Below, piece after piece: positions 23,626-62,349 of a DNA stretch of 64,000 nucleotides; position 1 is the first letter of the stretch, and every line of letters begins with the position of its first letter. A model generated the notes under the pieces. That model was not told the origin of the DNA. It searched no databases and worked only from the letters and a program-made list of their open reading frames with translations. Source of the stretch: Haliotis cracherodii (taxonomy: Eukaryota); contig NW_027266277.1 in NCBI RefSeq assembly GCF_022045235.1, forward strand, positions 434,001 through 498,000, read 5' to 3'. The position numbers and the translations under genes were made by a program.

Positions 23626-23872
23626 TAGATACCATACAGCAGTTTAACATGAATACTCAACTCAGACACAGTGTCTTCCGAGCCGACCAGTCCTTGTTTC
23701 AGCACATGGGTGATACAAGTATTGATGACACTACCTTAAGTATGATGCTGTTCTCACCTGTTCAAGGATCTGCTGATTATAGGTTGGTGTGTGTGTCAGC
23801 CTCATTGTTGCCACCAGAGCAGTAATCGTCCTTGCTGGCGTTTCCTTCGGTTTCTAAAGTGTTTGACAATTA

Positions 23873-24600: not shown

Positions 24601-24983
24601 CCTCTAAAAGAAGTTGACATCCGAATATTCTGCTCTTTATGTGTATCACTTCTAAATGCCTTTCATAAGAGTAACTGTCGGTTCGTGAATAGGAATTAGT
24701 TAGGAGCAGACAGTTGTTCACATCCCAACTGACTCAAAGTTAAAAAGATTTTTTTCTGCTGTTGAAGAAGGTGGGCCGTCGCTAGTAAATTTTTACAATT
24801 ATGTGAGGTCTCAAACCTTTCATCCGGCCAATCAGAGCGCCACTTACCAGATCTGAAAAGTCACCGTCGGTATGTGCTTTCTGCAACCTGAGACTTAACA
24901 CTGACTATTCTGAACAGCAGTTACGGACTGTTCGACTGATTGCTAGACATAGTCTATCCCCCGATAGGACAGCATTTGAAATG

Positions 24984-26220: not shown

Positions 26221-29200
26221 ATGAAGGCTCTTCTCGTGTTCACAGCCTTGGGAGTTGTGCTGGTAAGTTGACAAACAATGGCATTAATACGAGTTATGTA
26301 TCATGTCTGTATAGGTACCAATCACACCAATACACCATGTGGTAGACCAGGGCCCACTTGCACAAAGCGATCTTAGCGCTAAGACTATTGTAAGCCAATG
26401 CTAAAGTATGGGAGTTACGATCATCTTAGCGCTAAGATAGCTTTGTGCAAGTGGGCCCAGGTGTACTTCATCTGACAGGGGGCGGTCGGGTAGCCTAGTG
26501 GTTAAAGCGTTCGTTCGTCACGCCGAAGACCCGGGTTCGATTCCTCACATGGGTACAATGTGTGAAGCCCATTTCTTGTGTCCCCGGCCGTGATATTACT
26601 GGATTATTGCTAAAAGTGGCGTAAAACCAAACTCACTCACTCACTCATCCCACAGATGACAAGAAGACCGAAAGTCTGATTCATTCTTTTCATCTGTGTC
26701 TACCCTATTTCGTTTTAGGAGAATGTCACCAAAACGTTAAATCATTGAGTTTCTCTCAAGGTACAAGTTTTATTCGACATTTGTATAAACGTGGAGTGAG
26801 TGGGTGAGTTTGGTTTAACACCGCTTTTAACAGTATTCTAGTTGTATCACGGCGTGTCAGCTTGATATGGGATGAAAGCCCGAAGTGATGCAGGCCTCAG
26901 ACGTTTACCACTTTGGTGAAACCCACGGGTATGGTGCTGACAAATCTAGAAACATAATTTGGATTCGAACCCACTATCATAGGTTCTGACGTGTCCAAGG
27001 GCGGTCGGGTAGCCTAGTGGTTAAAGCGTTCGCTCGTCACGCCGAAGACCCAGGTTCGATTCCCGACATGGGTACAATGTGTGAAGCCCATTTCTGGTGT
27101 CCCCCGCCGTGATATTGCTGGAATATTGCTAAAAGCGGCGTAAAATCAAACTCACTCACTCACTCACTGATGTGTCCAAGGGACACAACTCTGGACAGCG
27201 AATTGCGGCGTCTTAGACGATTCGGTCACCCGCGCCTCCATGCACAAACTTTGTCCTAATGTTTTCTGACAAACAGGTTATATAAATCTGATAATGATTA
27301 CATTTAACCAAAGCACACAATTTGAGTGCATAACATGAATATATAGAATGAAATATAGGACATAACTCACCGTGTGTGTGGCACCGAGCGCAAGGACGTC
27401 AGATTCGCCATGTATGTAATTAGCCATGGTGACCCTCCCGAATGTAAATATATAGATTGTCAGTTATGACATAAACATGGTAGCAAAAACTTAAGTATGA
27501 TCTGCCATTCTATATCAACCAAGAAATATAATCGGGCGATCCGGGAGTCTCTTAGCAGCACGAGACACGCCACCCATTTCACCAGGTGTCATTACTGTCG
27601 TTGACGAGAGCTCTAAGCATGACAAGAGACGCCACCCATCTCAAATACCAGGTGTCATTACTGTCGTTGATGAGAGCTCTAAGCATGACAAGAGACGCCA
27701 CCCATCTCAAATACCAGGTGTCATTACTGTCGTTGATGAGAGCTCTAAGCAAGACAAGACACGCCACCCATCTCAAATACCAGGTGTCATTACTGTCGTT
27801 GATGAGAGCTCTAAGCATGACAAGAGACGCCACCCATCTCAAATACCAGGTGTCATTACTGTCGTTGATGAGAGCTCTAAGCAAGACAAGACACGCCACC
27901 CATCTCAAATACCAGGTGTCATTACTGTCGTTGATGAGAGCTCTAAGCAAGACAAGACACGCCACCCATCTCAGATACCAGGTGTCATTACTGTCGTTGA
28001 TGAGAGCTCTAAGCAAGACAAGACACGCCACCCATTTCAAACACCAGGTGTCATTACTGTCGTTGATGAGAGCTCTAAGCATGACAAGGGACGCCACCCA
28101 TCTCAAATACCAGGTGTCATTACTGTCGTTGATGAGAGCTCTAAGCAAGACAAGACACGCCACCCATCTCAAATACCAGGTGTCATTACTGTCGTTGATG
28201 AGAGCTCTAAGCATGACAAGAGACGCCACCCATCTCAAATACCAGGCGTCATTACTGTCGTTGATGAGAGCTCTAAGCAAGACAAGACACGCCACCCATC
28301 TCAAATACCAGGTGTCATTACTGTCGTTGATGAGAGCTCTAAGCAAGACAAGACACGCCACCCATTTCAAACACCAGGTGTCATTACTGTCGTTGATGAG
28401 AGCTCTAAGCATGACAAGAGACGCCACCCATCTCAAATACCAGGTGTCATTACTGTCGTTGATGAGAGCTCTAAGCAGGACAAGACACGCCACCCATTTC
28501 AAACACCAGGTGTCATTACTGTCGTTGATGAGAGCTCTAAGCAAGACAAGACACGCCACCCATCTCAAATACCAGGTGTCATTACTGTCGTTGATGAGAG
28601 CTCTAAGCAGGACAAGACACGCCACCCATTTCAAACACCAGGTGTCATTACTGTCGTTGATGAGAGCTCTAAGCATGACAAGGGACGCCACCCATCTCAA
28701 ATACCAGGTGTCATTACTGTCGTTGATGAGAGCTCTAAGCAGGACAAGACACGCCACCCATTTCAAACACCAGGTGTCATTACTGTCGTTGATGAGAGCT
28801 CTAAGCAAGACAAGACACGCCACCCATCTCAAATACCAGGTGTCATTACTGTCGTTGATGAGAGCTCTAAGCAGGACAAGACACGCCACCCATTTCAAAC
28901 ACCAGGTGTCATTACTGTCGTTGATGAGAGCTCTAAGCAAGACAAGACACGCCACCCATCTCAAATACCAGGTGTCATTACTGTCGTTGATGAGAGCTCT
29001 AAGCAGGACAAGACACGCCACCCATTTCAAACACCAGGTGTCATTACTGTCGTTGATGAGAGCTCTAAGCATGACAAGGGACGCCACCCATCTCAAATAC
29101 CAGGTGTCATTACTGTCGTTGATGACAGCTCTAAGCAAGACAAGACACGCCACCCATTTCAAACACCAGGTGTCATTACTGTCGTTGATGAGAGCTCTAA

Positions 29201-32200
29201 GCATGACAAGACACGCCACCCATTTCAAACACCAGGTGTCATTACTGTCGTTGATGAGAGCTCTAGGCAGGACAAGACACGCCACCCATTTCAAACACCA
29301 GGTGTCATTACTGTCGTTGATGAGAGCTCTAAGCAGGACAAGACACGCCACCCATTTCAAACACCAGGTGTCATTACTGTCGTTGATGAGAGCTCTAGGC
29401 AGGACAAGACACGCCACCCATTTCAAACACCAGCTGTCAAACACGGGAACGTTGCCTCCTTCAACAACAACAAGAACAGCAACAGCAACCGTATTGTCTC
29501 TATAACATGCGTCACAGGCTCAAGCTAGTGAGTTGGGTTTAATGCCGCTTTTAACAGTAGTCCAGCTATATCACGGCGTGTTAGCTTAATGTGGGAGGAA
29601 AACCCGAAGTGATGGACCATCCATGCCCGTGCACACACGTAGCTGAGCAGCTGGCATATCGGACGGGTGATGCATCAGTGACATTTGTATATGGCAATCC
29701 CCGATAGCCTGGAAACTCTCCCGCGGTAATCATATTAGGGGACCCACGTAGATCCGGGTTAGAATTGGCCTTCAGCAACCCATGCTTGTAATAAGATTCG
29801 ACCAACGGTCATGTAAAAATTGTGACTTTTAACCAATCAAAAATCAACGTTAAATTCATATCAAAAGGCCAGTTTAAAAAAACCGTAAAACCTCAAAGCA
29901 GATTTAGAAGTCACCCAGGTCAAAACCTTGATTTGGAAGATGGGCTGGTAACTGATATACTTCCCATCTGGGTTTAATCGAGGTTGTCAGGAACCTAGTG
30001 CAATATAGGGTATTGTGGTGATAGGTTTATAATTCTGTTTACACACTGAAACAGTTTGAAGAATGATTTTGGATGATGAATAGAATCTAACCATTGCGAG
30101 TTTTAAACTTGTATCGAGTCATGTTGATGTTTTTTTTTTGTCAAAGACACTGGGGCGAGATTCCGTGTGTCCACCGGGTATCTTCCGGAAGCCAGGTCCC
30201 GTGAATATCCGGGTTAAAATTGGTCTTTAGCTACCCATGCTTGTCATAAGAGCTGACTAAGCTTGCCATCAGAGGCGACTAACGGGATCGAGTGGTCAGA
30301 TCCTCTGACTTGATTGATGCATATCATCGTAACCGAATTGCGTAGATCGCTGTTCATGCTGTCAATCACTGGATTTTCTGTTCCATATTCGATAATTTAC
30401 AGACACGCCGTTATATAGCAGGAGTAATGCTGAGTGCGGCATTTACCAAGAAACAAAGAAGTGATTATGCATAATAAAGAACTATTTATATTCAGGGAAT
30501 GAGTTAGGTCCCTTAAATTGTTAGGAGAAGTTAGGAGATGCCCTCTCTACAAAGACCTGAGAGGGGAACTAAATTCATCACCCGGATTTGCTATGCACCC
30601 ACTATCGCTAAAAATACCATTAAATCATCCAGAGCCCTTTGCAAAAATTATCTCTAATTTCATCCACAAAATGTTCAGGCAAAGAAAATCTGCATCTCCT
30701 CCCTAACAATATAATCATAGCAATATTTGTATTCTGTTTTGTATGTCAATGTTTTAATTAGTCATGTTCATGTTTTGTACCCTGCCCCCTGTGGGTGTTT
30801 ATGTACAATAAATATTATTCTTCTTCTTCTACATATATATCAATATACATAGGGGGTTACAGCGAAGTTTTAAACGTCTGAGGCCTGCATCACTTCGGGC
30901 TTTCCTCTCGCATTAGGCTGACACTGGAATATATGTTAAAAGCGGCGTTAAACCCAATTCACTCACTCAGTCACTCAGTCACTCACTCACTTACTCTCAC
31001 CCACCCACCCACCCACCCATCCTCACTCACTCACTGACTCACTCTCACCCATCCATCCACCAACTCACTCACTCACTCACTCACTCGCTCACTCACTCAG
31101 GTTAGATCTGACCACTAATGTGTCAGTCGACCAACAGATGATCGGGAATGCAAGATGTCGTCTAAACGTACTGCTTCTTTGCATTAGATATCCCTTGTTT
31201 GATGAAGGCTTGTCTCATTATATATTAATATTGATATCATATTTCAGGCGCAGATTGTGTACTACCATCCAGAACTCGTCCATGGCTACTCGATGGAGTA
31301 TCACAGCTACGCTGTATGTGCTTTATCATATTTCTCATCAGGGAAAAATCATTTTTGGTTCATATTCATGTTCATTCCTCCCTCGTTATAATGCCCCTCG
31401 TTATAAAGCCAAGTTGTAATCAGAACGGATTTCTGCCATATGAATATAGTGCCACCCAGGTTATTATGCCACCCTGGTTATAAACCCACCCTGGATATAG
31501 TCCAATCATGGATATAACCCCACCCTGAATAAAGTTTCACACTGGTTATAACTCCACCCTAGATATAATCCCACCCAGGTTGTAGTTTAACCCTGGTTAT
31601 AATGCCACCCTGGATATAACCCCACCCTGGTTATAACCCCACCCTGGTTATAATCCCACCCTGGTTATAGTTTCACTCTGGATTTAACCACACCCTGGTT
31701 ATAGGTTAACCCTCGATATAATGCCACCCTGGTTGTAGTTTAACCTTGGATATAATCCAACCCTGGTTGTAGTATCACCCTGGATATAATCCCACCCTGG
31801 TTATAACCCCACCCTGGTTTTGTTTCACCCTGGATATAATCCCGCCCTGGTTATAACCCCACCCTGGATATAATCCCACCCTGGTTGTAGTTTCACCCTG
31901 GATATAATCCAACCCTGGTTGTAGTTTCACCCTGGATATAATCCCACCCTGGTTGTAGTTTCACCCTGGATATAACCCCACCCTTGATATAATCCCACCC
32001 TGGATATAATCCCACCCTGGATATAATCCCACCCTGGATATAATCCCACCCTGGTTATAGTTTCACCCTGGATATCATCCCCCCCTGGTTATAGTTTCAC
32101 CCTGGATATAATCCCACCCTGGTTGTAGTTTCACCCTGGATATAATTCCACCCTGGTTGTAGTTTCACCCTGGATATAATCCCACCCTGGTTATAATCCC

Positions 32201-34384: not shown

Positions 34385-36112
34385 TCACCCCAACCACCAC
34401 TTCCACACAAACACATACAACACAATACACACAATACACCCTTACACACACAATACACCCCTACACAAACAATACACCCCTACACACCCATCACATACAC
34501 ACACACAATACACACACATCGCACCCCTACACACACATCACACCCCTACACACCCATCACATACACACACACAATACACCCCTCCATACACATCACACCC
34601 TACACACACATCACACCCCTACACACACAAAACACCCCTCCACACACATCACACCCTACACACACATCACACCCCTACACACCCATCACACACACACACA
34701 CAATACACCCCTACATACACATCATATACACACACAATACACCCATACTACACATATCCTACCTCTACACACACAATACACCCCTACACACCTATCATAT
34801 ACACACACAATACACCCATACTACACATATCCTACCTCTACACACACAATACACCCCTACACACCATCATGTACACACACAATACACCCCTACATACACA
34901 TATCCTACCTCTACACACACAATACACTCCTGCACACCCATCATATACACACACAATACACCCCTACACGCACATATCCTACCTCCATACACACAATACA
35001 CCCCTACATACACATATCCGACCTCTACACACACAATACACCCCTACATACACATCACATACACACACAATACACCCCTACACACACATCACATACACAC
35101 ACAATACACCCCTACATACACATCACATACACACACAATACACCTCTACACACACATCACATACACACACAATACACCCCTACGTACACATATCCTACCT
35201 CTACACACACAATACACCCCTACATACACATCACATACACACACACAATACACCCCTACACACACATCACATACACACACAATACACCCCTACATACACA
35301 TATCCTACCTCTACACACACAATACACCCCTACACACATCACATACACACACAATACACCCCTACATACACATATCCTACCTCCACACACACAATACACC
35401 CCTACATACACATATCCGACCTCTACACACAATACACCCCTACACTCACATCACATACACACACAATACACTCCTACATACACATATCCTACCTCTACAC
35501 ACACAATACACCACTACACACACATCACATACACACACAATACACCCCTACATACACATATCCTACCTTTACACACACAATACACCACTACATACACATA
35601 TCCTACCTCTACACACACAATACACCCCTACATACACATATCCGACCTCAACACACAATACACCCCTACACTCACATCACATACACACACAATACACCCC
35701 TACATACACATATCCTACCTCTACACACACAATACACCACTACACACACATCACATACACACACAATACACCCCTACATACACATATCCTACCTCTACAC
35801 ACACAATACACCCCTACATACACATATCCTACCTCTACACACACAATACACCCCTACACACACATCACATACACACACAACTCACCCCTACATACACATA
35901 TCCTACCTCCACACACACAATACACCCCTACATACACATATCCGACCTCTACACACACAATAGACCCCTACACACACATCACATCACACACACACACCCC
36001 ACACACACATACACCACATCCCTACATTGATGCGACAGGCACACATCACACATTAACACACACACATCACACCCTTACACTCCCACACCCAACACTCATA
36101 CACACAAACCAC
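34385..36112. repeat. CA-rich compound minisatellite ending at an assembly gap
   Basis: Units such as ACACACAATACACCCCTAC. Confidence 0.93.
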
Positions 36113-36260
36113 NNNNNNNNNNNNNNNNNNNNNNNNNNNNNNNNNNNNNNNNNNNNNNNNNNNNNNNNNNNNNNNNNNNNNNNNNNNNNNNNNNNNNNNN
36201 NNNNNNNNNNNNNNNNNNNNNNNNNNNNNNNNNNNNNNNNNNNNNNNNNNNNNNNNNNNN
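36113..36260. other. Assembly gap (N run)
   Basis: Run of Ns. Confidence 1.
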
Positions 36261-36261
36261 A

Positions 36262-37394
36262 CCAGTGTGACCAGGTCTTGCATTCGAATGACTTTGACGC
36301 ACACGTCTCCCGAATAATGACTCAAACCTGTTCAATAGGGAAAAGTCTGTCGTCATTCCTGACCATGGCATTCTGCTGGGATGAGCACAGACGACTAGCA
36401 CACGGTGAGAACGGGCGTTGTCGTCCTGAAAGACAAAACGCCGACCCGCACGCCCTGCAAACGGGACAACACAGGGTGTCTGTATGTTGTCCCGAAAGTA
36501 CTGTCCACTGACCCGTCCTTGTACAATATGGAGTGGAGTTTATATAAACCTATTTATTTTCATAAAGTTGAGGGATTGGCAAACAAGCAAATGTTGCTTA
36601 TGTGAATGCCTCTCCCAAACATGATACACATACAAATTACAATGTAATAAAAGTGACATGAGAAATAGCATACATGATATAATTGACATTAAAGATAATT
36701 ATTGTTCTGTAAGTGTTTTATTACTCGATTATCTTTCGCAACTACAGCTACGTTATTATTTACATCCAGTACAACGTCATCGCAGTATCATATAGAAAAG
36801 CCAACATTAAAAAAGAAAAGAAAAAAAAGACAGATAAAATCTCTAAATCGGTAAGAAGATAGATAAAACTGTGCCCTCATTTCAAAATTTCAAGATTTGT
36901 TACAGTCGCTGAATTACCATTTACAACTGATTTTTAATCGTAGCCTTTTACGAAATAATACATATTTTGCCACGTAAGAAAGAAATAATCGATTAAGTGC
37001 ATCTTCTGTGTGACAGCCACAACATCTCGGGCTGTCGGACATAAATCTGACAAATGTGTCGGCGTTAAGATCACTGCAGCCAAGTCTGAGACGGGAGTGT
37101 TTTACCTGTCAGAATCCTGATCCATAATTTACATCAAAGTATAGACCATTCCTATCATTGCTTTTTATAAAACTTTTAAATCTTCCTAAACTACTGGCAT
37201 TTGTGTATTCAGTAGGTAGTGAGTTCCAAATATTTGACTCGCCGTTTCAGCTCGATTTCGTAGAGCCTGATTTCGATCAATCGATCCTGTACTCTTATCG
37301 TTGACCTGGGACGCCCTGAACGGGGTCGATCGTCAACATTTTGTGTTTGTTGGTGCCTGATAAACAGACTGTGAAACATTGAAAGTAATGTCAC
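36262..37394 (-). mobile_element. Tc1/mariner remnants
   Basis: VDDRPRSGRPRST motif at 37209-37394; catalytic-region-like fragments at 36262-36530. Confidence 0.55.
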
Positions 37395-40760: not shown

Positions 40761-41025
40761 ACCCGTGAAGATCCGGGGTAGAATAGGTCTTCAGCAACCC
40801 ATGCTTGCCGTAAAAGGCGACTATGCTTGTCGTAAAAGGCGACTAACGGGATCGGGTGGTCAGATTCGCTGACATGGTTGATGCATGTCATCGATCCCAA
40901 TTTTGTGGATCAATGCTTATGATGTCAATCACCGGAATGTCTGGTCTAGACTCGATTATTTACAGACCACCGTCATATAGCTGGAATATTGCTGAGTGGG
41001 GCATTAAACAACAAAAAACAACAAC
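40761..41025 (+). mobile_element. SINE-like family C
   Basis: Full copy. Confidence 0.85.
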
Positions 41026-41228
41026 ATAAAAGCCCACTACTCTCATATAATATAACATAACACGGGGAATTAATCAGCAAAGACGTCATTCTTTTGAGCT
41101 TATCTCATCTGAATCCATCATCCACCACAGGCATAAAATGAACAAGAAAAAATAAACCCAAGCAAGAAATAATGACTTGAACTATATGATTTGAGATAAT
41201 GTGTTTGCAGCAGACAGGCCAGGAGACA

Positions 41229-44200
41229 ATGAAGTGGTACCTTCTAGCTGCGTGTGTCGTCCTACTTGGACAGGGAGAAGCTAAGCCGGTTGAAGGTAAT
41301 TATCGTCGCATCCACCTTAATTTAAATTAATTTGATAACATACATTTAATTGTTATTCATATTAATATCATATCAATTCTTTCATATATTACCCGTGAAG
41401 ATCCGGGGTAGAATAGGTCTTCAGCAACCCATGCTTACCGTAAAAGGCGACTATGCTTGTCGTAAAAGGCGACTATGCTTGTCGTAAAAGGCGACTAACG
41501 GGATCGGGTGGTCAGGGTCGCTGACTTGGTTGATGCATGTCATCGATTCCAATTGCGTGGATCGATGCTCATGATATTAATCACTGGATTGTCTGGCCCA
41601 GACTCGATTATTTACAGACCGCCGTCATATAGCTGGAATATTGCTGAGTGCGGCGTTAAACAACAAACCAACCAACCAAGTTATTATACGAATAAATAAA
41701 TGTTATGATGCTGGTTATAACCGGGGTAGAATAGGCCTTCAGCAATCCATGCTTGCCGTAAAAGGCGACTGTGCTTGTCGCAAGAGGCGACTTACTTGAT
41801 CGGGTAGTCAGGCTCACTGACTTGGTTGATGCATGTCATCGTATCCCAGTTGCTTGGATCGATGCTCATGATGTCAATCACTGGATTGTCTTGTCTGACG
41901 AGATGCGAACCGGTGTAGAAAGCTCAAACAACTCTCCCTAGATTTGACTCAAGAGTCATATGGGCCTAGGCATTCATGACTCGCCTAGCCAGGCTCAAAA
42001 CACTCCCTCAAGGCTCAGCTAACTCCCCTACTGGGCCCAAATGACTCTCCTTATTTTGAATTAAAATGATTACTCGCCTCTATAGTTCTCATGATATCCG
42101 AGAATTTAATCTCCACAAAGCTGTTTTTCAACATTGCAAGTCATTATGAGAATTTCCTGCTCAAAATCCCAGTAGACGATCCTACTTATATTGTTAAAAC
42201 AATATTGATCGATGAGGCAACAGGCGTCATTGCGATCTAGTCAATTACAGGTAAAGGGTTAAGATTGAAAGAACAGAGAAAATGTTTATACAGTGCATAG
42301 TGGTTGTGAGATTATGACTACCATTTGTTAGAGTTGTCAAACAGACTATCCACTCACACTACCTTTCAAAATCATCGACACGCATTTTTATTATGTGACC
42401 TTTTCCGTTCAGGTAAAACAAATTCCCCAAATACTTGGTAAATTTTGATTCACGGACAACAAATACCACGTTGTACAGCTTATTATAAAATTCACCTGGT
42501 AGGTAAATATATCCGATTTTAGTTACTCACAGTTTATAATGCGCAGTTGCCGAGATTTAGTGTACTGAAATGGGCGAGTCGCTGCATTAGGAACAATAGG
42601 TAACTTTAATAAAACCCATAAAAGATTCTATTTTTACAAGACGATTAGTTTTCGTGTATAAAGAGACACAAGTGTATCAAACACCTATTACCCAATAAAA
42701 CAATGACCGCGCCCAGTGAACACAAAGCAGCACACTTAAACTTCACTTTAAGGTAATTTGACGATAAAAATAAGGTGAGGTGAAATGGGGTTTAACGTCG
42801 CGTCCAAGATTACTGCACTTATATAGCGACGTGCATGTACGTGTGTGTGTTTGTGTGGATGCTTGTACTTGTCCGGGCTGATGCCGATTTATAGTGCTAG
42901 CCCACTGTATGCTGACTCCGAGCCGACCACTCCTTGTTTTAGCCCCTTAATGCCGAGCGCCAGACAGGTTAACAACAAGTACCATCTTTTAACGTCTTTT
43001 TGTATGACGCGGCCGGGGATCGAACCCCGGACATTCTGCTCTCGGGCGATAATAACCTCAAAAAGGAAACTTATTAACATATCACATAAGGTAAAGTAAA
43101 TATTTTCATATGTTTTGAACAATACAGATTTCAATTAATTTTTTTACATTGTGATCGTTCATGCATATCAACATTTTACACGAAGAAATAAGATTACCTT
43201 ACAGGTCATAGTGCCAATATAATTATCTTTTTCAAAAATATTACAGATATTACAATCAAACATCAGGTGCAGTATAATTTGAAATACAAAGTTTGTAAAT
43301 CAAACAGAAAAATGAATGCAATTTTTTTCTAAGTTAAACAAATATTGCAGTAAACCGTCAATATCACATCATATCAAGCCATTGTGTCAGAAAATAATGT
43401 TGCTGATGTGTAACAGTATTAAAAAGTCTAAACGAAATGAATTGATAATGTCCTTCAAATTTATCACATAAATTCTTATTATGCCAAACACCTGGTAAAT
43501 TCACAATTTGTAAAAAAATATTAAGTGCAATCATCGAAAATACGGTGCTGTATCATCGAAAATATATTATTTGTGTTACGACATTCACAGACTGTTGCAC
43601 AATTAGTGTCAAAACATGTGTATTCTTCAAAACAAATGGGGGAGTCATTTGAGTCGGTTGAGTCATTTGAGCCTACGACGGGGGAGTCATTTGAGCCGCC
43701 TACACTGGGATTCGAACCCCACAAAAATAGGTTTAGGGTCTGCCCAAGGGACGCAACTCTGCACAGCGAATCGCGACGCTTTAGACGACTGTGTCCCCTA
43801 TTATATGACCTGAACCCTGCATTGTTAAGATTAATCCAACACAAGCATGCTGTAACCTGACTAAGCAGATCGACTTATGAGCATTTTGTACTCCTAAAAA
43901 TACTTAAAAAAACATTTGCCTCAGGTTTTATAACAAACATGAGGGATGTCCTTTTTTCGTTTTGTTAATAAATATAAATGTGTTCGCCTCATCTTTTTGA
44001 GGAAAGATATGCATTTCTTGAATCAGTTGCTGAAATAATTTCCGTCTCTTAAAATAATTGCTAAATAGTTGGTCTCTTGTGGTCACCAGATGGACAGTCC
44101 GGGGCATCTCAAAATCTATTCAGGTCACCTGGCCAGGTAACGTATGACAAAGAGGAACACGACGACGTTGAGCAGCATAACGAAGATTTTGACGACGTTG

Positions 44201-44607
44201 ACAAGTATGATGAAGAAGATGACGAGGATGACGAAGAAGAAGACGAGGGTGACGAAGAAGATGACGAGCATGACGAAGAAGATGAGGAGGATGAGGATGA
44301 GGATGACGAGGATCATGGTATAAAAAGCCAAAAGGGAGGATTCTTGAAAAGGCACAACCTACCGGAACCAAAAAACTGGGGGAAAATGAATTCAAAGGAG
44401 CAAAAGAAATATATAAAAAAATATAGGAAGAAAATCCGTCAATTGAGGCAAAAGAGCAACGATGACATACAACGGAAGGCGAAAAAAATGAAACGACTTG
44501 GGGACGAAATCATAAACGACAGCCATGATTTGAAAAAAACTGGGCAGAAGATCCGCAGCAAAGCAGTTGACGTTTTGCGTTCTGTAAAACTTCTTGACAA
44601 CCTGTAA
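41229..44607 (+). CDS. Secreted 194-aa protein: signal peptide, poly-Asp/Glu tract, Lys/Arg-rich C-terminus; coding exons 41229-41295 and 44090-44607
   Basis: MKWYLLAACVVLLGQGEAKPVE followed by a phase-1 GT-AG intron joins the 44077-44607 ORF (DGQSGAS...DEEDDEDD...GFLKRHNLPEPKNWGK...LLDNL*). There is an acceptor at 41210 and AATAAA at about 44630. Confidence 0.85.
41391..41895 (+). mobile_element. Tandem pair of family C SINEs
   Basis: Two copies joined by an AT-rich linker; the same pair is inverted at 61607-62130. Confidence 0.85.
41910..43708. mobile_element. Non-autonomous hAT-like DNA transposon
   Basis: TIR CC(A/G)GTGTAG, subterminal GGAGTCATTTGAG repeats inverted at the two ends, 8-bp TSD GAT(G/T)CGAA. 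It contains a family D SINE. Confidence 0.65.
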
Positions 44608-45264
44608 TCTGGATCAAGACCAGGTGTCTAATAAAGGTGTAACAGCAAACATATAAGCCTTTGTTTGTTTATTTGTTGTCGTTTGTTGCTCCTGCCTCCT
44701 CGTGAAGGGGCCACCCAAATCAGCCTCGACCTCAGCGGTCACCCAAATCGTTTTTGAGCGTTTTGTTTCTTCTTTAACGCCGCACTCAGCAATATATGAC
44801 GGCGATCTGTATATAATCGAGTCTGGACCAGAAAATCCAGTGATTGACACCATGAGAATCGATCTACGCGATTGGGACACGATGACATGCATCAAGCAAG
44901 TCAGCGAGCCTGATCACCCGATCCCGTTAGTCGCCTCTTACGACAAGCAAAGTCGCCCCTTACGACAAGCATTGGTTGCTGAAGACCAATTCTGACGCAT
45001 CCTTACGGGTTGTTTTTTTAATGCAGAGAATGTTGTACACGACGAAGATGTTAACTAAAATGGTTCTGACGATAATGCAACAACTCCCAATGACAATGCA
45101 CATGGTGATAATGATTAATAATTTCACATTGTACCTGAAGCACAGATCCAACTCTGCTAGAAAAAAACCAGTTGGCTTGGGGATTGCAGTGAGGAATAAG
45201 AGATAGTTAGTAATATTATAGATCTGACAAGACATTTCAAGATATTGTTCAAGACGTTTACTTA

Positions 45265-48606: not shown

Positions 48607-48630
48607 CTTATCTTATCTAACATATAAAAG
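48607..48630 (+). promoter_or_regulatory. Gene C promoter: tandem GATA sites plus TATA box
   Basis: CTTATCTTATCT directly followed by TATAAAAG, about 55 nt upstream of the ATG. Confidence 0.55.
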
Positions 48631-48679
48631 ATGACTCATTGGATTGTACCGTCTCTTTAGGACACATATCCGTGGAAAT

Positions 48680-51600
48680 ATGAAGGCGGTCTTTGCTCTC
48701 GCGCTCTTTGGGTTTGTTGTGGTAGGATTTCTGTCTCATTCTCAAATCATACATAATGACTATAGTAGCACTGGGGCACATGCAGAGTTGCGTCCCTTAG
48801 TCGAATGAGGATCCGCTAATCATGTATTCAAATCACTGTTACGCCTTGATTATGATCCATAGTTTTCCAGCCGTGCTGGTAGGTTTCACCAGAGTGGTTT
48901 GTTTGTTTGTTTGTTTGTTTCTATGTTGTTTAACGCCGCACTCAGCAATATTCCAGCTATATGACGGAGGTCTGTAAATAATCGAGTCTGGACCACACAA
49001 TCCAATGATTGATATGAGTATCGATCCACGCAATTGGGATACGATAACATGCATCAACCAAGTCAGCGAGCCTGACCACCCGATTACCTTAGTCGCCTCT
49101 TACGACAAGCATAGTCGCCTTATTGCGATAAGCATGGGTTGCTGAAGACATATTCTACCCGGGATTTCACGGGTGTCACCAGAGTGGTAAACGTCTAGAC
49201 CTTTTGACGCCTGATATGACTGAAATCCTGCTAAATGTGCATAAGAAAACTTCCAACTTTAGGAAAAAGAAAACAGGTTTACTGCACACAGCGACGGTTC
49301 CATGTAGCTTTCACACTCGCTGGAGTATTTTGTCTGAAATAAAATTTTGTTTTGTTTTTAGGCCCAGCATCCCAATAATTACAACCGTGATCGAATCCAT
49401 GGCTACACATTTGAATATCACTCATACGCTGTAAGTATAAGTCTACTTGGAGGTATTCCACACGTTGCTTTTTAGGCGGTCAGTGTATTTCCAGCCTGCT
49501 TTCCTGGGTAGGTTGCGCTTGCGCTACACTCAGACTAGCGCAAGCGCAGCCTATCCACGGAACCTGACTGATGTCTTTCCCGATTTTGTAAAAAGCACAC
49601 TTATTGTGAACGACTTGGAACGTTACTATCCTTTCCTGCTTCGGGATTGTACAATAGTAACATATTGGTAAATGGAAATACGACCAAGTGACCATCTCCA
49701 ACTCAACTTCTCGTCTTACAGACTCAAGTCATTTGGTTCTCGGTCTTTCCAATGCTATGAACTCATAAAGCAATAAGCACCACATCTGTGCAGACTTACA
49801 TGTGTATCCTGTTTAGTTGGCTTCATGTCCCATTGGCTTCCACCTATGTGTTTTCTGTCCATGCTGTGACAGTATTATCCTTCTGTTGTCATTACCTACT
49901 CATGTTATCCCACTCATGGATGCAGTTGTGTGTTGAATGGTAAAACTGTATTGTATTTTTGTTCATATAACTAGGTTTTAGAATTACATCTCTTGACATC
50001 AACAATAATGTTAACTTCTTTGAAGCCTGATATTTTAATGTTTGTTTGTTGTTTAACGTCGTACTCAGCAATATTTCAGCTATATGACGGCGGTCTGTAA
50101 ATAATCGAGTCTAGACCACACAGTGATTAATATCATGGCCATCGATCGATGCAATTGGGATACAATGACATGAATCATCAATCAAGTCACCTGACCACCC
50201 GATCCGTTAGTCGCCTTTTACGACAAGCGTTGCCAACTATTACGACAAGCATGGGTTGCTGCAGACCTTTTCTAACCCTGATCTTCACCAATCTCATTAA
50301 AAACCCTGATCTTCGCCAATCTCATTAAAATCAGATCTTAGTCCTCGCTATCGCTAAACAAAGATCTGAGGACATCCCATTACGGGTCACGTCAGAACGA
50401 CCTTTCATCCGACCAATCAGACCGTCGCTTACCAAATCGTATAAGTGACAGTCGGAATGTGTTTTCAAATCATGCAACCTCGAAAACGTTAACACTGGGT
50501 ATTCCGTACGACAGTTACGGCCCATACGACTGATTTCGTCAAAATTATCGTCTATCTCTCGCTTCCGTGGGATAAACATTTGAATGGAGGAGGCGTTGCA
50601 CAGTACGTGGGAAGCACTGCCATACAATCTCAACCATATATAAGACATTCCGGAATGTTCGTTTGTTCAGTTTTCAAAATATTAATCGAGAACTGTGTCA
50701 ACATACTTTTCAAGCGTTGTCTGAAATGGAACTCACTCGGTTGAAACGAGTGCCGTAAAGCTCGAGAAAGCTGCTTTCCTATTGGCTGATGTCGACTTCT
50801 TGTTAGTCATTTCAGTGGCCGGTCAAAGTTCGCGAAAGGTCGTCCTGACGTGACCCGTAATGGGATCTTTGTTTAACGGCAGCGAGAACTTAGATCAGAT
50901 TTTCATGAGATTGGATGTTCACGGGTCTAGTATTTTAATGACTTCACGCACATGTCTCCTCCGGTATTTTAATTACTTCACGCGTGTGAGTTCTCCGGGG
51001 GTTTATTTTAAAACATTTATTTTGGTTTTAGCCAAAAAATATGTTGTTAGATAAAAGCGACAAAACCGTTTCAATCATCATATGAAATATCTATTGTACG
51101 ATTCCGACTAAATCATAATCATGAGTTTAGGAATAACTATCAATTAGTGATGATACCACGTGTTCGCGAAAAGGTGATCGTTTCCTGACACCCCCACAAA
51201 CACATGCAAAGGCAAGTCAAGTGTTCTGAAAAAGACGGAAACACGTATGACTAAAGTGAAAGCTAGAAGTTAGAGGCCGACTGTTTGATATTAATAACTA
51301 TATATTGATAACTAATGGGGTGACGTTTCCGCTTCAAGACAATCGTGCAAAACAATTCCTTGGAAACCACAGCACATCATTAAACCCAGCAAATTGGGTG
51401 AAAGGTCTGGTGATAAAAATGTTTGCTCGTCACGCTTAATTTTCGGGCTCGATTCCCCATATGGCTACAATGTGTGAAGCCCCAGTCAGGTGTCCCCCTG
51501 CTAAAAGCGACGTAAAACCATACTCACTCCAACAAGTCAAGCGAAAAGGTTCCCCAAAACAAATTGACAACCTCAAGTCTAGTGGATAGACTGTCTGCCA

Positions 51601-52972
51601 GGAGAGCAGAAAGACGGCGGTTCGATCCCTGGCCGCGTCAAACTAAAAGGGGTTAAAATATTGTACTTGCTTGACGCTCAGCATTAGGTTTGTTTGTTTT
51701 GTTTGTTTGTTTGTTGTTTAACGCCACACTCAGCAATATTCCAACTATATGACGGCGGTCTGTAAAAAAATGGAGTTTGGACCAGACAATCCAGTGATTG
51801 ACATCATGAGCATTGATCCTCGCAATTGGGATACGATGACCTGCATCAACCAAGTAAGCGAGCCTGACCACCTGATCCCGTCAGTCGCCTCTTACGACAA
51901 GCATAGTCGCCTCTTACGGCAAGCATGGTTGCCTGAGGCCTATTCTACCCCAGATCCTCACGGGTCCTCGGCATTAGGGACTAAAACAAGGACTGGTCGG
52001 CTCGGAGTCCGTATAGTGTGTCTGAGTGGGCTTAAACTGAGTGAGAAACAGGCATTAGCCAAGATTAGAACAAGCAGGCATACACAGACACACTTATCTT
52101 TTTGATTTACTTTCAGGATTTACTGGTAGTCACTAACACCAGCACCTGCATCCTGGTTTCCCTCCCGGGCAAGGATGCTGTCATGGGTGACCTCCAGCAA
52201 CGCTACGCAATTGAAGTGAGGCACCCCTTCAACACCACTTAACACCCTTTAACACCAACAAACACTCATCAACACCCCACAACACCCATCAACACCCCAC
52301 AACACCCATTAACAAGCCTCAAAATCAGCCAACACCCCACAACACCCATCAACACCCCACAACACCCATCAACACCCCACAACACCCATCAACACCCCAC
52401 AACACCCATCAACACGCCACAACACCCATCAACACGCCACAACACCCAACAACACCCCACAACACCCATCAACACTCATCATTCCTAAGCATAGTCGCCT
52501 TTTACGGCAAGCATGGGTTTCTGAAGACCTATTCTGAACCGGGTCTTCTCGGGTCTGCTGGAAGTAAAAAGGAGATCAAACATTTGAACATCTCCAATAA
52601 TTGGCACACCAGTTTAATACATGCATTTCTCTACAAATCTTTACCAAATGGTATTTCCAGGTGTTCAAAAAAGGGCCTGTACCCTACGTTATCTTTCGGG
52701 GAAATAAGTTGCGCCCCTTCGGGATGATATGATCCTATGATCGTGGGCTCGAATCCATCATTATGATGACCAGCACCATGCGGGGTAAAACCTCATTCAC
52801 TCACTCACTCATTCCACAGGACAAAGTCTACGCCCAAATCACGTCCGGCCAGGGGGAACATCGTACCAGCCTCTCCCAAGTCCGCCAGGACTATCACGAC
52901 ATCCGGGCAGTGTTCGAGTGCTTCAGAAAGACTGTCTACGAACTAACATACTCAGCAGCCACTTCAAAATAA
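48680..52972 (+). CDS. Gene C: secreted 120-aa paralog; exons 48680-48721, 49362-49430, 52117-52215, 52820-52972
   Basis: MKAVFALALFGFVV|AQHPNNYNRDRIHGYTFEYHSYA|DLLVVTNTSTCILVSLPGKDAVMGDLQQRYAIE|DKVYAQITSGQGEHRTSLSQVRQDYHDIRAVFECFRKTVYELTYSAATSK*. TATAAAA at about 48623; AATAAA overlaps the stop codon. Confidence 0.92.
48895..49174 (-). mobile_element. SINE-like family C nested in a family B remnant (gene C intron 1)
   Basis: TSD TCACCAGAGTGGT. Confidence 0.85.
50322..50909. mobile_element. MITE, same family as 37395-37933, inserted in a family C SINE
   Basis: Colinear with 37395-37933; TIRs present. Confidence 0.8.
52230..52480. repeat. 20-bp minisatellite AACACCCCACAACACCCATC (gene C intron 3)
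   Basis: Direct tandem repetition. Confidence 0.9.
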
Positions 52973-53954
52973 ACACCTCTATTCTGCTGATCACATCCCC
53001 TGGTGTTATTAAAACATTGTCATATGATTGTTATTATATTGATTTCTTTAAAAAATATATTTGTTTTGCATATATGGTATCGCTTCAATTAGGAGATAAA
53101 CCGATTTTCGATTTTAAGGTTTCAAACGTTGATTTGATACTTGTAAAAATAATGAGGAATCGAACGCTTTAGCTTTACGGAAACTGTGGTGTGAAGGTTA
53201 CACAAAACTAAATGATTTCACAAAAACTTCTACAGTAATGTTTTACTTTTTAAACAATAACTTGGCATTCAACAACTATCACATAAACATGAAAACACAG
53301 CCTAGCCTAAAAGCAGCAATACAAACAAACAAAATAGCTAGCTTAGCCAATTCCTTTTCAGAGTTCAGGAAGTTGAAAACACCAACCCCATTCCGCACCA
53401 AATGTCACCTGTCGGAAAATATCTGTGGTCACACTCAGCATAAGTCATCATGTTACGAAAAAGCAGTAAATATTGAAAAACTTGGTCAGTTATGGATTGA
53501 TGTACATTTAAAAAAACATAAACATCTCACACAGAACCATCCCATGACAGCTGCCTGATGTCTCAATCTGCACTGAAGGCCACGAAAACCACTGTGGGGA
53601 CAACATATTTGGTGTAGAAGAAACTGGGTGTTGGTGGAATAGTGTCGACCATTTGCATTGTCCACTGAAACCGTCTTTGCATGTCCACAAAAGAAAATTT
53701 ATACGAAAGGGATCGTAGTTGATGACATAGATGGTTCACAAACATATCAGGTGCAGCGTAATGGATGCGCCATCAACATTGTCTTACGTAGATATCGGGC
53801 CAGGAGCATGATTCTAACATGTCATGCAAAATTATCTTACCCACAAATTAAAGGTAAATCTTAAAATAAAAGAGTCTAAAGCTATTCATTATGTTAGGGT
53901 TATCAACTTTAGAGGTATTTTTCTAGTACTAGCGATACACTGTCTGACTGTCTG

Positions 53955-56900
53955 TTTGCCGTGCAGCTCGTGTAGTTGATAAGGACATGGCAACCCGTGC
54001 AGCTCGTGCATATGATAATGACATGACAATCCATGACATCGTGTGTATGTCATTATCAAATACACGAGCTGCACCAAATCAGATATTTGATATCAAAAGG
54101 ATTTTTTAAGTTACTTGAAAAATAATAATTAGCTAATCACATATAGGAAGAGTGTATTATGATAATGACACGGCAGCCCGTGCAGCTCGTGTATTTGACA
54201 ATGACATGTCAGCCCGTGCAGCTCGTGTATATGATAATGACATGACAGCCCGTGCAGCTCGTGTATATGATAATGACATGTCAGCCCGTGCATCTCGTGT
54301 ATATGATAATGACATGACAGCCCGTGCAGCTCGTGTATATGATAATGACATGGTAACACGTGCAGCTCGTGTATATGATAAGTACAGCCCGTGCAGCTCG
54401 CGTATATGATGATGACATGGCAACACGTGCAGCTCGTGTCTATGATAGTGACATGGCAACACGTGCAACTCGTGTATTTGACAATGACATGGCAACACGT
54501 GCAGCTCGTGTATATGATAATGACATCACAACCCGTGCACCTCGTGTATATGCTAATGGCAGCCCATGCAGCTCGTGTATATGCTAATGGCATGTCAGCC
54601 CGTGCAGCTCGTGTATATGATAAGGAAAACCCGTGCACCTCGTGTATATGCTAATGACATGACAGCCCGTGCAGCTCGTGTATATGATAATGACATGACA
54701 ACCAGTGCAGCTTGTGTATATGCTAATGGCATGTCAACCCGTGCAGCTGGTGTATATGATAGTGTCATGACACACCTTGGAACTCGTGTGTATGATAGTG
54801 ACATGACACCCAGTGCAGCTCGTGTGTATGGTAGTGACAGCCCGTGTATATGATAATGACATGGCAACCAGTGCAGCTCGTGTATATGATAATGACAGCC
54901 CGTGTATATGATAATAACATGGCAACACGTGCAGCTCGTGTATATGATAATGACAGCCCGTGTATATGATAATGACATGGCAATACGTGCAGCTGGTGTA
55001 TATGATAAGGACAATCCGTGCAGCTCGTGTATATTCTAATGGCATGTCAGCCCATGCAGCTCGTGTATATGATAGTGACATGACCGCCCGTGCAGCTCGT
55101 GTATATGATAATGACATGGTAGCCTGTGCAGCTCGTGTATATGATAATGACATGGCAACACGTGCAGCCCGTGCAGCTCGTGTATATGATAAGGACAACC
55201 CGTGCACCTCTTGTATTTGACAATGACATGGCCGCCTGTGCAGATCGTGTATATGATAATGACATGGCAACACGTGCATCCCGTTTATATGATAATGACA
55301 ACCCGTGCAGCTCGTGTATATGATAAGGATATGGCAACACGTGCAGCTAGTGTACATGTATATCATAAGGACAGCCCGTGCAGCTCGTGTATATGATAGT
55401 GACATGGCAACACGTGCAGCTCGTGTATTTTGACAATGCCATGACAGCCCGTGCAACTCGTGTATTTGACTATGACATGGCAGCCCTTGGAGCTCGTGTA
55501 TATGATAATGACATGACAACCAATGCAGCTCGTGTATATGATAATGACGGCCATCCGTGCAGCTCGTGCATATGATAATGACATAGCAACACGTGAAGCT
55601 CGTGTCTATGATAATGGCAGCCCGTGCAGCTCGTGTATATGATAATGGCATGTCAGCCCGTGCAGCTCGTGTATATGATAATGACATGGCAACACGTGCA
55701 GCTCGTGTCTATGATAATGGCATGTCAGCCCATGCAGCTCGTATATATGATAGTGACATGACAGCCCATGCAGCTCGTGTATTTGACAATGCCACTGCAA
55801 CACGTGCAGCTCGTGTATATGATAATGGTAGCCCGTGTATATGATAATGACATGGCATTACGTGCAGCTCGTGTATATGATAAGGACAACCCGTGCAGCT
55901 CGTGTAAATGCTAATGGCATGTCAGCCCGTGCAGCTCGTGTATATGATAATGGTAGCCCGTGTATATGATAATGACATGGCATTACGTGCAGCTCGTGTA
56001 TATGATAAGGACAACCCGTGCAGCTCGTGTATATGCTAATGGCATGTCAGCCTGTGCAGTTCGTGTATATGATAATGACATCACAGCCCGTTCAGCTCGT
56101 GCATTTGAAAATGGCAGCCCGTGCAGCTCGTATTAATGATAGTGACATGGCAACACGTGCAGCCCGTGCAGCTCGTTTATATGATAAGGTAAACCCGTGC
56201 ACCTCGTGTATAGGAGAGTGACATGACAGCCCGTGCAGCTCGTGTATATGAAAATGACATGACAACCAGTGCAGCTCGTGTATATGCTAATGGCATGTCA
56301 ACCCGTCCAGCTCGTGTATATGGTGGTGACATGACACCCCGTGCAGCTCGTGTGTATGATAGTGATATGACACCCCGTGCAGCTCGTGTATATGATAAGG
56401 ACATGGCAACACGTGCAGTTCGTAAATATTATAATGACAGCCCGTTTATATCATTATGACATGGCAATACGTGCAGCTGGTGTATATGATAAGGACAATC
56501 CGTGCAGCTCGTGTATATGCTAATGGCATGTCAGCCCGTGCAGCTCGTGTATATGATAGTGACATGACCGCCCGTGCAGCTCCTGTATATGATAATGACA
56601 TGGCAGCTCGTGTATATGATATTGACATGGCAACACGTGCAGCCCGTGCAGCTCGTGTATATGATAAGGACAACCCGTGCACCTCGTGTATATGCAAATG
56701 GCATGACAACCCGTGCACCTCGTGTATATGCAAATGGCATGACAACCCGTGCAGCTCGTGTATATGCAAATGGCATGACAACCCGTGCAGCTCGTGTATA
56801 TGATAAGGACAACCCGTGCACCTTGTGTATATGATAATGACATGACAACCCATGCAACTCGTGTATATGATAATGACGGCCACCCGTGCGGCACGATTAT

Positions 56901-57262
56901 ATGATAATGACATGGAAATACGTGCAGCTCGTGTATATGATAATGGCAGCCCGTTTATATCATAGTGACATGACAACCCGTACAGCTTGTGTATGTGGTA
57001 ATGACAGCCCGTGCAGCTCGTGTATATGCTAATGGCATGTCAGTCCGTGCAGCTCGTGCATGTGACAATGACAGCCCTTGCAGCTCGTGAGTATGATAAT
57101 GACAGTAGTGCAGCTCGTGTATATGATAATGATAGCCCGTGCAGCTCGTGTATATGATAATGACAGTCCGTGCAGCTCGTGTGTATGATAATGATAGCCC
57201 TTGCAGCTCGTGTATATGATAATGTCAGCCCGTGTAAATAATAGTGATATGGCTACCCGTGT
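53955..57262. repeat. Complex minisatellite, variable 30-40 bp unit CCCGTGCAGCTCGTGTATATGATAATGACATG
   Basis: About 3.3 kb of tandem variants between genes C and D. Confidence 0.95.
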
Positions 57263-58348
57263 CTGCTTTACGTCAATAATGACATCTACATGACGTCAAC
57301 GTTGCTTGGTATAACGTTTCCAACTCTCTTATCTTGAACAGTGTAGCTATCAATAAAAGGAATGAATGACGTATGTCGCATTTCATGTAGCCCTTCTTCG
57401 ATCTGGAAACACAAAACTCGGACACTCGCTACGAACATCGCATCTACATGTCTACAACCTGGCGTCTTCACACGAGTGGCAGACTGACGGATAGCGGGTG
57501 ACACAATTATATCTCAGTTCCAAGACAATTTCATATTCATATTGTTTGATTTTTCAAGAAAGTGTTCGAAAGTATCGAACGTTACAGATGACTACACAGT
57601 TAGTCTTACGTCGACACTGCAGCCTAGTTTTGTTTATATGTGTTTGTTTGTTTGTTGTTTAACACCGCACGCCAGCAATATTCTAGCTGTATAACGGCGG
57701 TCTATAAATAAGTAATCGAGGTCTACATTTCGCCATGTAGATTATCCAAAATACTTAGTGTGTTACCAATATTACAATCGTTTATTTGTGACGATACTGG
57801 TAAATTACTTCATTTGTTTATAAAGCTTATTGAAGTGAGTGACAATTAGGATTTAACGCCGCTTTGAACAGTATTTGAGGAATATCAGTGCGTGTCATCA
57901 GAACGAACGCAGGTCGCATATAACCTGTTTAAACCCACGAACACGGGTGAACACAAATAGCGGATCATAATCTGTATGAATCTGGGATTCGAACCCACGA
58001 CGAGTAGACAGTGTAGGTCGTAAGGATTTGTCACTTCGTTGATACCCAACAATAAGACCACGGTGTGACAAACTAAACCATAATTCATGACAGTGACGAA
58101 AGTGGGGTTGGAACCCAAAACTGCGGATCCTGTTAAGCTTAAGGGACGCAACTCGCAATGGTTTCCCGAGGCCACACGACGACGCGCCATTACGTAATTC
58201 AATGGGTTATTTAGGTACGGCATTGTAAGTATATATTTAATTGGGATACTCTTTCTGACTTTATAGATAAGACCTTTTATCAAACGACAAGGTGACGCTT
58301 CTCAGCTATTTAATTTCTTTATACGTCAACGTGCCACAGAACTTCCAA

Positions 58349-61300: not shown

Positions 61301-62349
61301 CCGCCTCAGCCAGGCGTTCAACAATCAAACTGAGAAAGACAGGATTAAGGTAAGAGAGTGAGTGAGTATATTCTACTTCCCATGTGTTACCACAGCAAGC
61401 AGATAGATATCGAGACTTAGCAGACCAGTCGTCGATGAAATGAGCAACAAACGTCGGCTTTACACAATCAGCAGATCCTGCTGCTCCTAATGCATACCAC
61501 CCAATCCCCATTTAGCACGGAAACCCACCGGAATGCGAGTGTCTGTGAGGATAATATTCATTTATACTGAACAAAAAATATCACGAATAATTTGGGGAAT
61601 ATTTTATGACGGCGGTCGAATCTGGCCCAGACAATCCAGTGATTGATATCATGAGCATCGATCCACGCAATTGGGATACGATGACATGCATCAACCAAGT
61701 CAGCGAGCCTGACTACCCGATCAAGTAAGTCGCCTCTTGCGACAAGCACAGTCACCTTTTACGGAAAGCATGGATTGCTGAAGGCCTATTCTACCCCTGT
61801 TATAACCAGCATCATAACGTTATACCAGGCCCAATTTATTCGTATAATAACTTGGCTGGTTGGTTGGTTGGTTGGTTGGTTGTTTAACGCCGCACTCAGC
61901 AATATTCCAGCTATATGACGGCGGTCTGTAAATAATCGAGTCTGGACCAGACAATCCAGTGACTAATATCATGAGCATCGATCCACGCTATTGGGATCGA
62001 TGACATGCATCAACCAAGTCAGCGAGCCTGACCACCCGATCCCGTTAGTCGCCATTTACGACCAGCATAGTCACCTTATACGGCAAGCATGGGTTACTGA
62101 AGACCTGTTCTACCCCGGATCTTCACGGGTCACTTAGTAATTCTCTTTCGTTTCTATAAACTTTTTTCTCAGGATGACATACTGGCCATAATATCGGACG
62201 GAACTTCAGCCGTCAATGTGTCATCTGACGTCCTCCGTTACGACTACAGCGACTACCTGGCCGCATCCCAGTGCAGAGACCTCCAAGTCTACAAGCTCCC
62301 CTACACCTATGACACACAAGCTGGTGTGGAAATGACGACTGTCTACTAG
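58349..62349 (+). CDS. Gene D: divergent 130-aa paralog; exons 58349-58390, 59627-59698, 61248-61349, 62173-62349
   Basis: MRGLSFAAIFRYSA|AFIFTITSFNELYMGYRFEYHAPN|GLLLIHNNLKCFLVHVDLRLSQAFNNQTEKDRIK|DDILAIISDGTSAVNVSSDVLRYDYSDYLAASQCRDLQVYKLPYTYDTQAGVEMTTVY*. It keeps GYxFEYH, both Cys, a 42-nt exon 1 and a 102-nt exon 3. Exon 1 is the least certain. Confidence 0.85.
58525..58832 (+). mobile_element. SINE family D (gene D intron 1)
   Basis: TSD TTAGGAGTGAG. Confidence 0.8.
59765..61290 (+). repeat. 54-bp tandem array (about 28 units) derived from the gene D exon-3 acceptor and exon start
   Basis: Unit TTTACAG|GGTCTACTTGTGGTACACACTGATCTATCATGTTACCTTGTACCATG; the last unit is the real exon 3 boundary. 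Confidence 0.95.
61607..62130 (-). mobile_element. Tandem pair of family C SINEs (gene D intron 3)
   Basis: Inverted counterpart of 41391-41895, including the linker. Confidence 0.85.

Follow-up and report, generated by a model that had tools for sequence, protein, structure and literature searches.

What does an abalone protein with an acidic front half and a basic tail do, and is its basic part cut free as a defence peptide? The question is raised by a two-exon gene, here called the target, in a 64,000-nucleotide stretch of the Haliotis cracherodii genome (contig NW_027266277.1, positions 434,001 to 498,000), which is referred to as the window. An earlier reading made from the letters alone, called the sequence-only reading below, described the product as an orphan with a signal peptide, an acidic block and a cationic tail, set among possible BRICHOS-like genes. 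Our analysis identified a conserved small-core heptad repeat in the tail, presumably helical, as the specific new feature of this protein. We favor a reading in which the product is a secreted polyampholyte that neutralises itself and serves a secretion as a coiled-coil building block, its acidic block screening a basic coiled coil, and we consider this plausible, if a little short of an even chance. The features of the target are listed here by their positions in the window.

41229-41295, plus strand: coding exon 1, 67 nucleotides, then a phase-1 intron; likely signal peptide and first mature residues
41229-41282, plus strand: likely signal peptide, residues 1-18, with a basic n-region, a hydrophobic core and small residues at -3 and -1
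41296-44089, plus strand: GT-AG intron with several high-copy interspersed repeats inside
44090-44607, plus strand: coding exon 2, with spacer, acidic block, linker, basic tail and stop
44146-44313, plus strand: acidic block of residues 42-97 (44 of 56 are Asp or Glu), in part built of a 21-nucleotide tandem repeat
44347-44352, plus strand: Lys-Arg (residues 109-110) in GFLKR, proposed convertase site, retained in H. rufescens and EK in H. rubra
44368-44412, plus strand: PKNW-x-KM cap opening the tail helix, from invariant alignment columns
44467-44595, plus strand: six-heptad repeat, residues 149-191, from hydrophobic-period and conservation analysis
44630-44635, plus strand: AATAAA polyadenylation signal; exon-2 contigs of runs X1, X2 and X16 end at 44619-44646

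The two exons lie on the plus strand, with a GT at 41296 and an AG directly before 44090, and joining 41229-41295 to 44090-44607 gives an open frame of 194 residues. The exon-2 protein was 100% identical to XP_071109397.1, the NCBI automatic model from H. cracherodii, which is this gene. That model starts at an in-frame ATG 10 codons upstream of the one chosen in the sequence-only reading; the models of H. rufescens and H. rubra begin at the latter (41229). Of the 23 runs listed, 21, spread over five organism codes, matched the stretch in part, and none shared half of its words. Runs X1, X2, X10 and X16, which carry no tissue labels and whose RNA origin is guessed rather than recorded, were compared with 41000-44760. 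A single contig depth recurred on exon 1 and exon 2 in each of X1, X2 and X10 (16.8, 108.9 and 68.6, respectively). The numbers of letters calculated from the depth ratios were 41.9, 43.0 and 42.1 for the donor bin, where 42-44 were expected, and 61.9, 60.0 and 61.9 for the acceptor bin, where 60-62 were expected. A contig piece of X2 began exactly at 44090, and the exon-2 contig of X16 began at 44056, within the intron. The splice from 41295 to 44090 that had been proposed earlier fits the contig depths to the base in three presumed-RNA runs, which is strong but indirect support; it is an inferred splice because it rests on depth arithmetic, and the 15 joints listed do not include this one (a further 3095 exist, and repeats dominate the table). 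Very high contig depth was seen at the intron repeats (41378-42007, 42764-43141 and 43646-43897). All 4 of the changes listed for exon 1 in X10 were synonymous. The gene is beyond chance because orthologous models exist and the contig depths on both exons match the join. A literature search, with most subscription journals outside its reach, returned no paper on the protein and none containing the accessions. The gene is genuine and has an automatic model already, but it is undescribed.

Some observations concern the 5' end. A contig piece of X10 begins at 41214, a start deduced from its coverage of the upstream bin, which is exactly 38 letters, and this lies right behind a CAGCAG acceptor-like site (41199-41214). 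The X1 contig, unlike that of X10, runs straight through 41214. A possible untranslated upstream exon, joined at 41214, would put the earlier ATG in an intron, and the 10 extra residues of the NCBI model may then not be made in that form. Further upstream, ACGTCA lies 147 bases before the ATG, and no TATAAA was found within the 230 bases scanned.

The charge counts of the sequence-only reading were all reproduced. The encoded protein is 23 kDa; 44 of 56 residues in the block are acidic, and the 84-residue tail after Lys-Arg holds no Cys, 26 Lys or Arg and 10 Asp or Glu, for a charge of about +16. The signal peptide and its cut between GEA and KP were read by eye, and the protein is probably secreted. 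With a charged fraction of 0.51, a kappa of 0.52 and a net charge of -22, the mature chain is a charge-segregated polyampholyte, and its acidic block is probably disordered. The acidic block precedes the basic tail in each of the three homologs, with charged fractions of 0.48-0.53 and kappa of 0.36-0.55. The tandem-repeat portion of the block (44199-44313) shows in-frame length differences between species. The block is 11 residues longer in the H. rufescens protein, XP_046333666.2, and the record of run X16 exceeds the window span by 12 letters in this region.

In word-index searches, XP_071109397.1 and its H. rufescens ortholog XP_046333666.2 were the sole matches. HMMER, run with the last 97 residues against 1.84 billion representatives, gave 5 matches including the query protein. 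One was XP_046553342.1 of H. rubra (E 2.5e-9); three further matches, at 26-30% identity across 42-46 residues, were rejected as repeat-driven. XP_046333666.2 and XP_046553342.1 are the sole homologs detected, and the family appears limited to Haliotis within these two kinds of search, in which close relatives of XP_046553342.1 (e.g., from H. asinina) were not sought. Pfam returned no family at cut-off for the target, its tail or the homologs, PDB sequence searches no match below E 0.2, and Atlas no usable match for the tail. An HMG-box-like spacing, W-x-x-M-x-x-x-E-x-x-x-Y, was considered and set aside, with no Pfam support. The database names of the three models, '46 kDa FK506-binding nuclear protein-like', 'glutamic acid-rich protein-like' and 'leiomodin-3-like', are mutually discordant and likely reflect the acidic block alone.

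The H. cracherodii and H. rufescens proteins were 92% identical (16 differences in 194 residues), and 87 of 182 positions were identical between the target and the H. rubra homolog. In H. rubra the signal peptide was conserved at 16 of 18 positions and the tail at 37 of 84; the H. rubra acidic block has Asp or Glu at 27 of 43 positions, and the H. rubra tail has 30 Lys or Arg and 11 Asp or Glu. The linker was the least conserved part (2/12), and the first half of the tail matched at 12 of 37 positions. The heptad segment, identical at 25 of 43, was the best-kept mature part apart from a short spacer.

The amphipathic spacing that had been noticed in the tail was borne out in a more specific form, as a heptad repeat. 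Over tail residues 39-84 the best hydrophobic period was 3.50, and it was 3.48 in the H. rubra homolog; the power was 109.9 at 3.5 and 61.1 at 3.6 (shuffle p 0.0004). The first core position of the heptads (A, G, S, G, A, V) was invariant against H. rubra in 6 of 6 cases and the second (I, M, I, L, I, V, L) in 5 of 7. Together, 11 of 13 core positions were invariant, and the count outside the core was 13 of 30 (Fisher p 0.013). AlphaFold, run without an alignment, predicted one helix over tail residues 14-83 with a mean predicted local distance difference test (pLDDT) value of 92, and no stretch of 7 tail residues contained more than 4 that are beta-prone. A homodimer prediction of the tail, also without an alignment, scored 0.12, which gives no answer either way. 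Helices of the exchangeable apolipoprotein type follow an 11/3 repeat with a period near 3.67, where the power was 24.9, and this candidate was rejected on period. Helix-helix packing requires a strict period of 3.5 and a narrow core of small and large residues, a pattern that suits a lytic peptide less.

The favored reading, a self-neutralising coiled coil, would operate as follows. Inside the cell or the secretory pathway, the acidic block would mask the charge of the basic helix. After secretion, seawater salt and calcium, which the block may bind, would shift the charge balance and free the helices. The freed helices would bundle and bind polyanions in the secretion, such as mucus or gland matrix. 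Bundling likely needs screening, because tails of about +16 would repel one another. Cleavage would be unnecessary in this model, and any cut site would not be fixed across the genus. The model of salt-dependent packing is borrowed, as analogy and not homology, from FITZAP, an acidic disordered partner in abalone sperm that keeps the cationic lysin and sp18 packed while salt is low and lets them go in seawater (PMC6952181).

Several points weigh against this reading. The heptad register was chosen from the hydrophobic pattern of the window protein itself, and charged residues are in any case often less conserved than hydrophobic or small ones. The conservation test amounts to one real comparison, because there are three homologs only and two of them are nearly identical. 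Given its identity to the target, XP_046553342.1 may moreover be a paralog. A helix predicted from a single sequence is uninformative on oligomer state. H. rubra also has other dibasic sites, an RR before Pro and a KRR, so the cleavage site may have shifted and not been lost. Lastly, a conserved signal peptide with a faster-changing mature part is typical of defence and reproductive proteins.

The acidic part could instead be a propiece from which a convertase frees a cationic, helical antimicrobial or membrane-active peptide of 70-85 residues; the sequence-only reading had proposed a cut at Lys-Arg that releases a peptide beginning HNLPEPK. The layout of signal, acidic part, Lys-Arg and Cys-free cationic tail fits such a precursor, and the hydrophobic moment of the tail reaches 0.71 in 18-residue windows. 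The Lys-Arg is kept in H. rufescens, with KRR nearby in H. rubra. Between H. cracherodii and H. rufescens, the target has also diverged faster than gene A, a neighbor described below (16/194 compared to 3/127 differences, Fisher p 0.03). A similar order of anionic N-terminal and cationic C-terminal regions is described for Hydra periculin-1 (PMC11767717). However, the position of the Lys-Arg is lost in H. rubra, where FWEK aligns with the FLKR of the target, so that KR stands in 2 of 3 homologs. The dibasic sites of H. rubra lie 4 (RR, then Pro) and 14 (KRR) residues downstream, and a cut at KRR would come after the conserved PKNW cap. Hydrophobic residues make up 22 of 84 positions of the tail (26%, the same share in all three homologs), which is low for lytic peptides. 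With a large hydrophobic face as the measure, the tail is cationic and amphipathic, yet its hydrophobic share is small and its best period is 3.5 across six heptads, which points to helix-helix packing. The sequence has no Gly-Lys-Arg amidation signal, and no Pfam family was matched. These results weaken the proposed release of the peptide, and we regard a processed defence peptide as rather unlikely.

A place in the shell matrix was the other role suggested earlier, in which the acidic block would bind calcium carbonate and the basic tail would anchor the protein to the organic framework. The share of acidic residues in the block fits this idea, and abalone shell contains many uncharacterised, disordered, very acidic proteins (PMC6003135). 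For the H. laevigata shell proteome, that study searched a transcriptome made from the mantle of an animal that was apparently an H. laevigata x H. rubra hybrid. Four predicted tryptic markers of the H. rubra homolog, together with PKNW, gave 0 matches in 27 of 27 supplementary files of PMC6003135, and MKWYLL gave 0 matches in 24 of the 27, in a text search of another species' tables that covered cell text up to 400 characters. This negative is weak because long cells were truncated, the ortholog might have a different sequence, and proteins of low abundance escape detection. A match to SFWEK in 5 of the files belonged to an unrelated shell protein. We consider a shell role improbable. A further candidate role is that of a reproductive protein of the sperm acrosome, egg jelly or gonad secretion that carries a FITZAP-like acidic shield in cis. 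Structures of lysin and sp18 are present in the PDB, but no solved structure matched the target at E <0.2 and these two did not come up. In favor of such a role, an acidic disordered partner packs cationic proteins in abalone sperm (PMC6952181), the target diverges faster than its neighbor, and its identity to the H. rubra homolog is 87/182, against 100/125 for gene A and an H. asinina homolog. However, FITZAP is about 6 kDa as encoded (PMC6952181), compared to 23 kDa for the target. Target motifs were absent from one small supplementary file of PMC9022041, which is uninformative. A reproductive role appears quite improbable.

Four genes surrounding the target bear on the remaining proposal, that the target is the client of BRICHOS-like neighbors.

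15281-19323, minus strand: neighbor A, four exons, 127-residue likely secreted BRICHOS-like protein, XP_071109387.1
26221-34211, plus strand: neighbor B, paralog of A, 118 residues, same four-exon plan, 50/118 identical to A
48680-52972, plus strand: neighbor C, paralog of A, 120 residues, 57/118 identical to A
59627-62349, plus strand: neighbor D, more distant paralog, exons 2-4, 26/106 identical to A

The products of A to D have 116-127 residues, and A to C share a 42-nucleotide phase-0 signal exon; the signal exon of D was not found in scans of 53000-59626. A likely fifth paralog leaves the left end of the window at 1600-1641 (minus strand), where a 42-nucleotide ATG exon has a hydrophobic translation and a GTGAGT donor. 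It is taken as a paralog because its exon size and phase match exon 1 of A to C. H. asinina has at least 4 close homologs of A. In Atlas, with a feature-score bar of 0.9, the product of A fell nearest to a mollusc cluster (0.88) and then to BRICHOS clusters (0.86-0.87, template modelling scores 0.60-0.65), all below the bar for naming. Pfam gave no BRICHOS or other family at cut-off for the neighbors or their single exons. Our own predicted model of A had a pLDDT of 46, and fold searches with it gave nothing clear, with the BRICHOS domain of proSP-C at Z 3.2. This low-confidence model has four consecutive strands followed by helices. All four mature paralogs share two aligned Cys, which may form a bond; the model puts one at the beginning of strand 4 and the other at the end of its last helix. 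A Tyr-His pair is also invariant in 4 of 4, and the weak model puts its His where strand 2 ends, the place of the conserved Asp of BRICHOS proteins. The four proteins end 14-24 residues past the second Cys with no further Cys and no C-terminal hairpin client. BRICHOS proteins are described as having four strands in a row, helices and a closing strand, a Cys pair joining strand 4 and helix 2, a conserved Asp ending strand 2, a convertase site and a C-terminal, Cys-bridged beta-hairpin client (PMC9714404). These data suggest that A to D are likely BRICHOS-fold proteins without an in-chain client, a lead that comes from predicted models; at that level, the earlier description of the flanking genes as possibly BRICHOS-like was upheld.

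A pairing in trans, with these proteins as chaperones of the target, found no such support. The target sits among four paralogs whose nearest named look-alikes are BRICHOS proteins, and the accession numbers of the two orthologs in H. rufescens are consecutive, a hint of conserved linkage; the neighborhood is all that speaks for the pairing. Such a pairing is unlikely because the described clients are Cys-bridged beta-hairpins, and the tail is Cys-free and one predicted helix. These clients are encoded in cis (PMC9714404, PMC9756803), the annelid antimicrobial ones as Cys-rich beta-sheets (PMC9756803). Compared with arenicin-type precursors, the target has no BRICHOS domain in its precursor and no Cys-rich beta-hairpin (0 Cys, helical model). 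It had no BRICHOS match in Pfam and no sequence similarity to its neighbors, and the exon plans differ (67 nucleotides and phase 1 for the target, 42 nucleotides and phase 0 for the neighbors). The pairing is highly improbable. A wider proposal would join several of these ideas in an abalone-specific charge switch. A FITZAP-like shield and a basic small-core coiled coil in one chain would be stored neutralised, seawater or a convertase cut would set loose a long helix as the effector, to bundle on polyanions of microbes or mucin, and tandem client-less BRICHOS-fold chaperones would be co-secreted; this is a long shot.

A possible candidate identity of A to D is vdg3 (H. asinina AAX11341). The vdg3 proteins are a mollusc digestive-gland family of very high expression and unknown function (PMC3517415, PMC5549309, PMC4203926, PMC4938671). 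Upstream of gene C (48622-48637), a TATAAA is closely followed by an AP-1-type TGACTCA. Intronic minisatellites of about 28 copies each, with periods of 66 nucleotides in gene B (27549-29439) and 54 nucleotides in gene D (59770-61266), create long spurious open frames. A tandem array with a period of 36 nucleotides and about 90 copies occupies 54152-57224, and an assembly gap of 148 N (36113-36260) lies between gene B and the target. Open frames at 22409-24699 and 36096-36539 are presumably pieces of decayed Tc1/mariner-type transposases, judged by eye.

If the coiled-coil reading is true, the target would offer a compact, Cys-free model, simple to express, of a coiled coil that salt or calcium switches in a marine secretion, and three misleading database names would be corrected. 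If the defence-peptide reading is true, abalones, which are both farmed and endangered, would have a new antimicrobial of long helical form. Specialists would find little surprise in the bare finding, because secreted acidic proteins that lack known domains and are restricted to one lineage are common among molluscs (PMC6003135). The neighboring family, likely of BRICHOS fold and without an in-chain client, may be a more useful lead than the target.

Four known systems can be set beside these genes. Cationic peptide precursors with an acidic propiece include the dermaseptin type of frog skin and the cytolytic peptides of spiders, and the target resembles them in its signal, acidic region, basic site and cationic C-terminal part. 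The same likeness extends to Hydra periculin and arminin (PMC11767717). Unlike these precursors, the target has a proposed cut site that is not conserved in position, and its tail of 84 residues is heptad-patterned, 26% hydrophobic and without an amidation signal or Cys. Acidic low-complexity shell proteins of molluscs (PMC6003135, PMC2989941) are likewise secreted, domain-less and lineage-restricted with a long acidic block; unlike them, the target has an ordered basic heptad tail, and its markers were missing from the H. laevigata shell files. The neighbors A to D resemble the BRICHOS proteins of PMC9714404 in their signal exon, the four strands followed by helices of the low-confidence model, and the Cys pair in all four, and differ in having, as the model places it, likely His for Asp, no C-terminal hairpin client and no Pfam match. 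FITZAP resembles the target in setting an acidic, likely disordered stretch opposite a highly cationic secreted partner. FITZAP is a separate peptide of 3-4 kDa that acts in trans (PMC6952181), whereas the target carries both charges in one chain.

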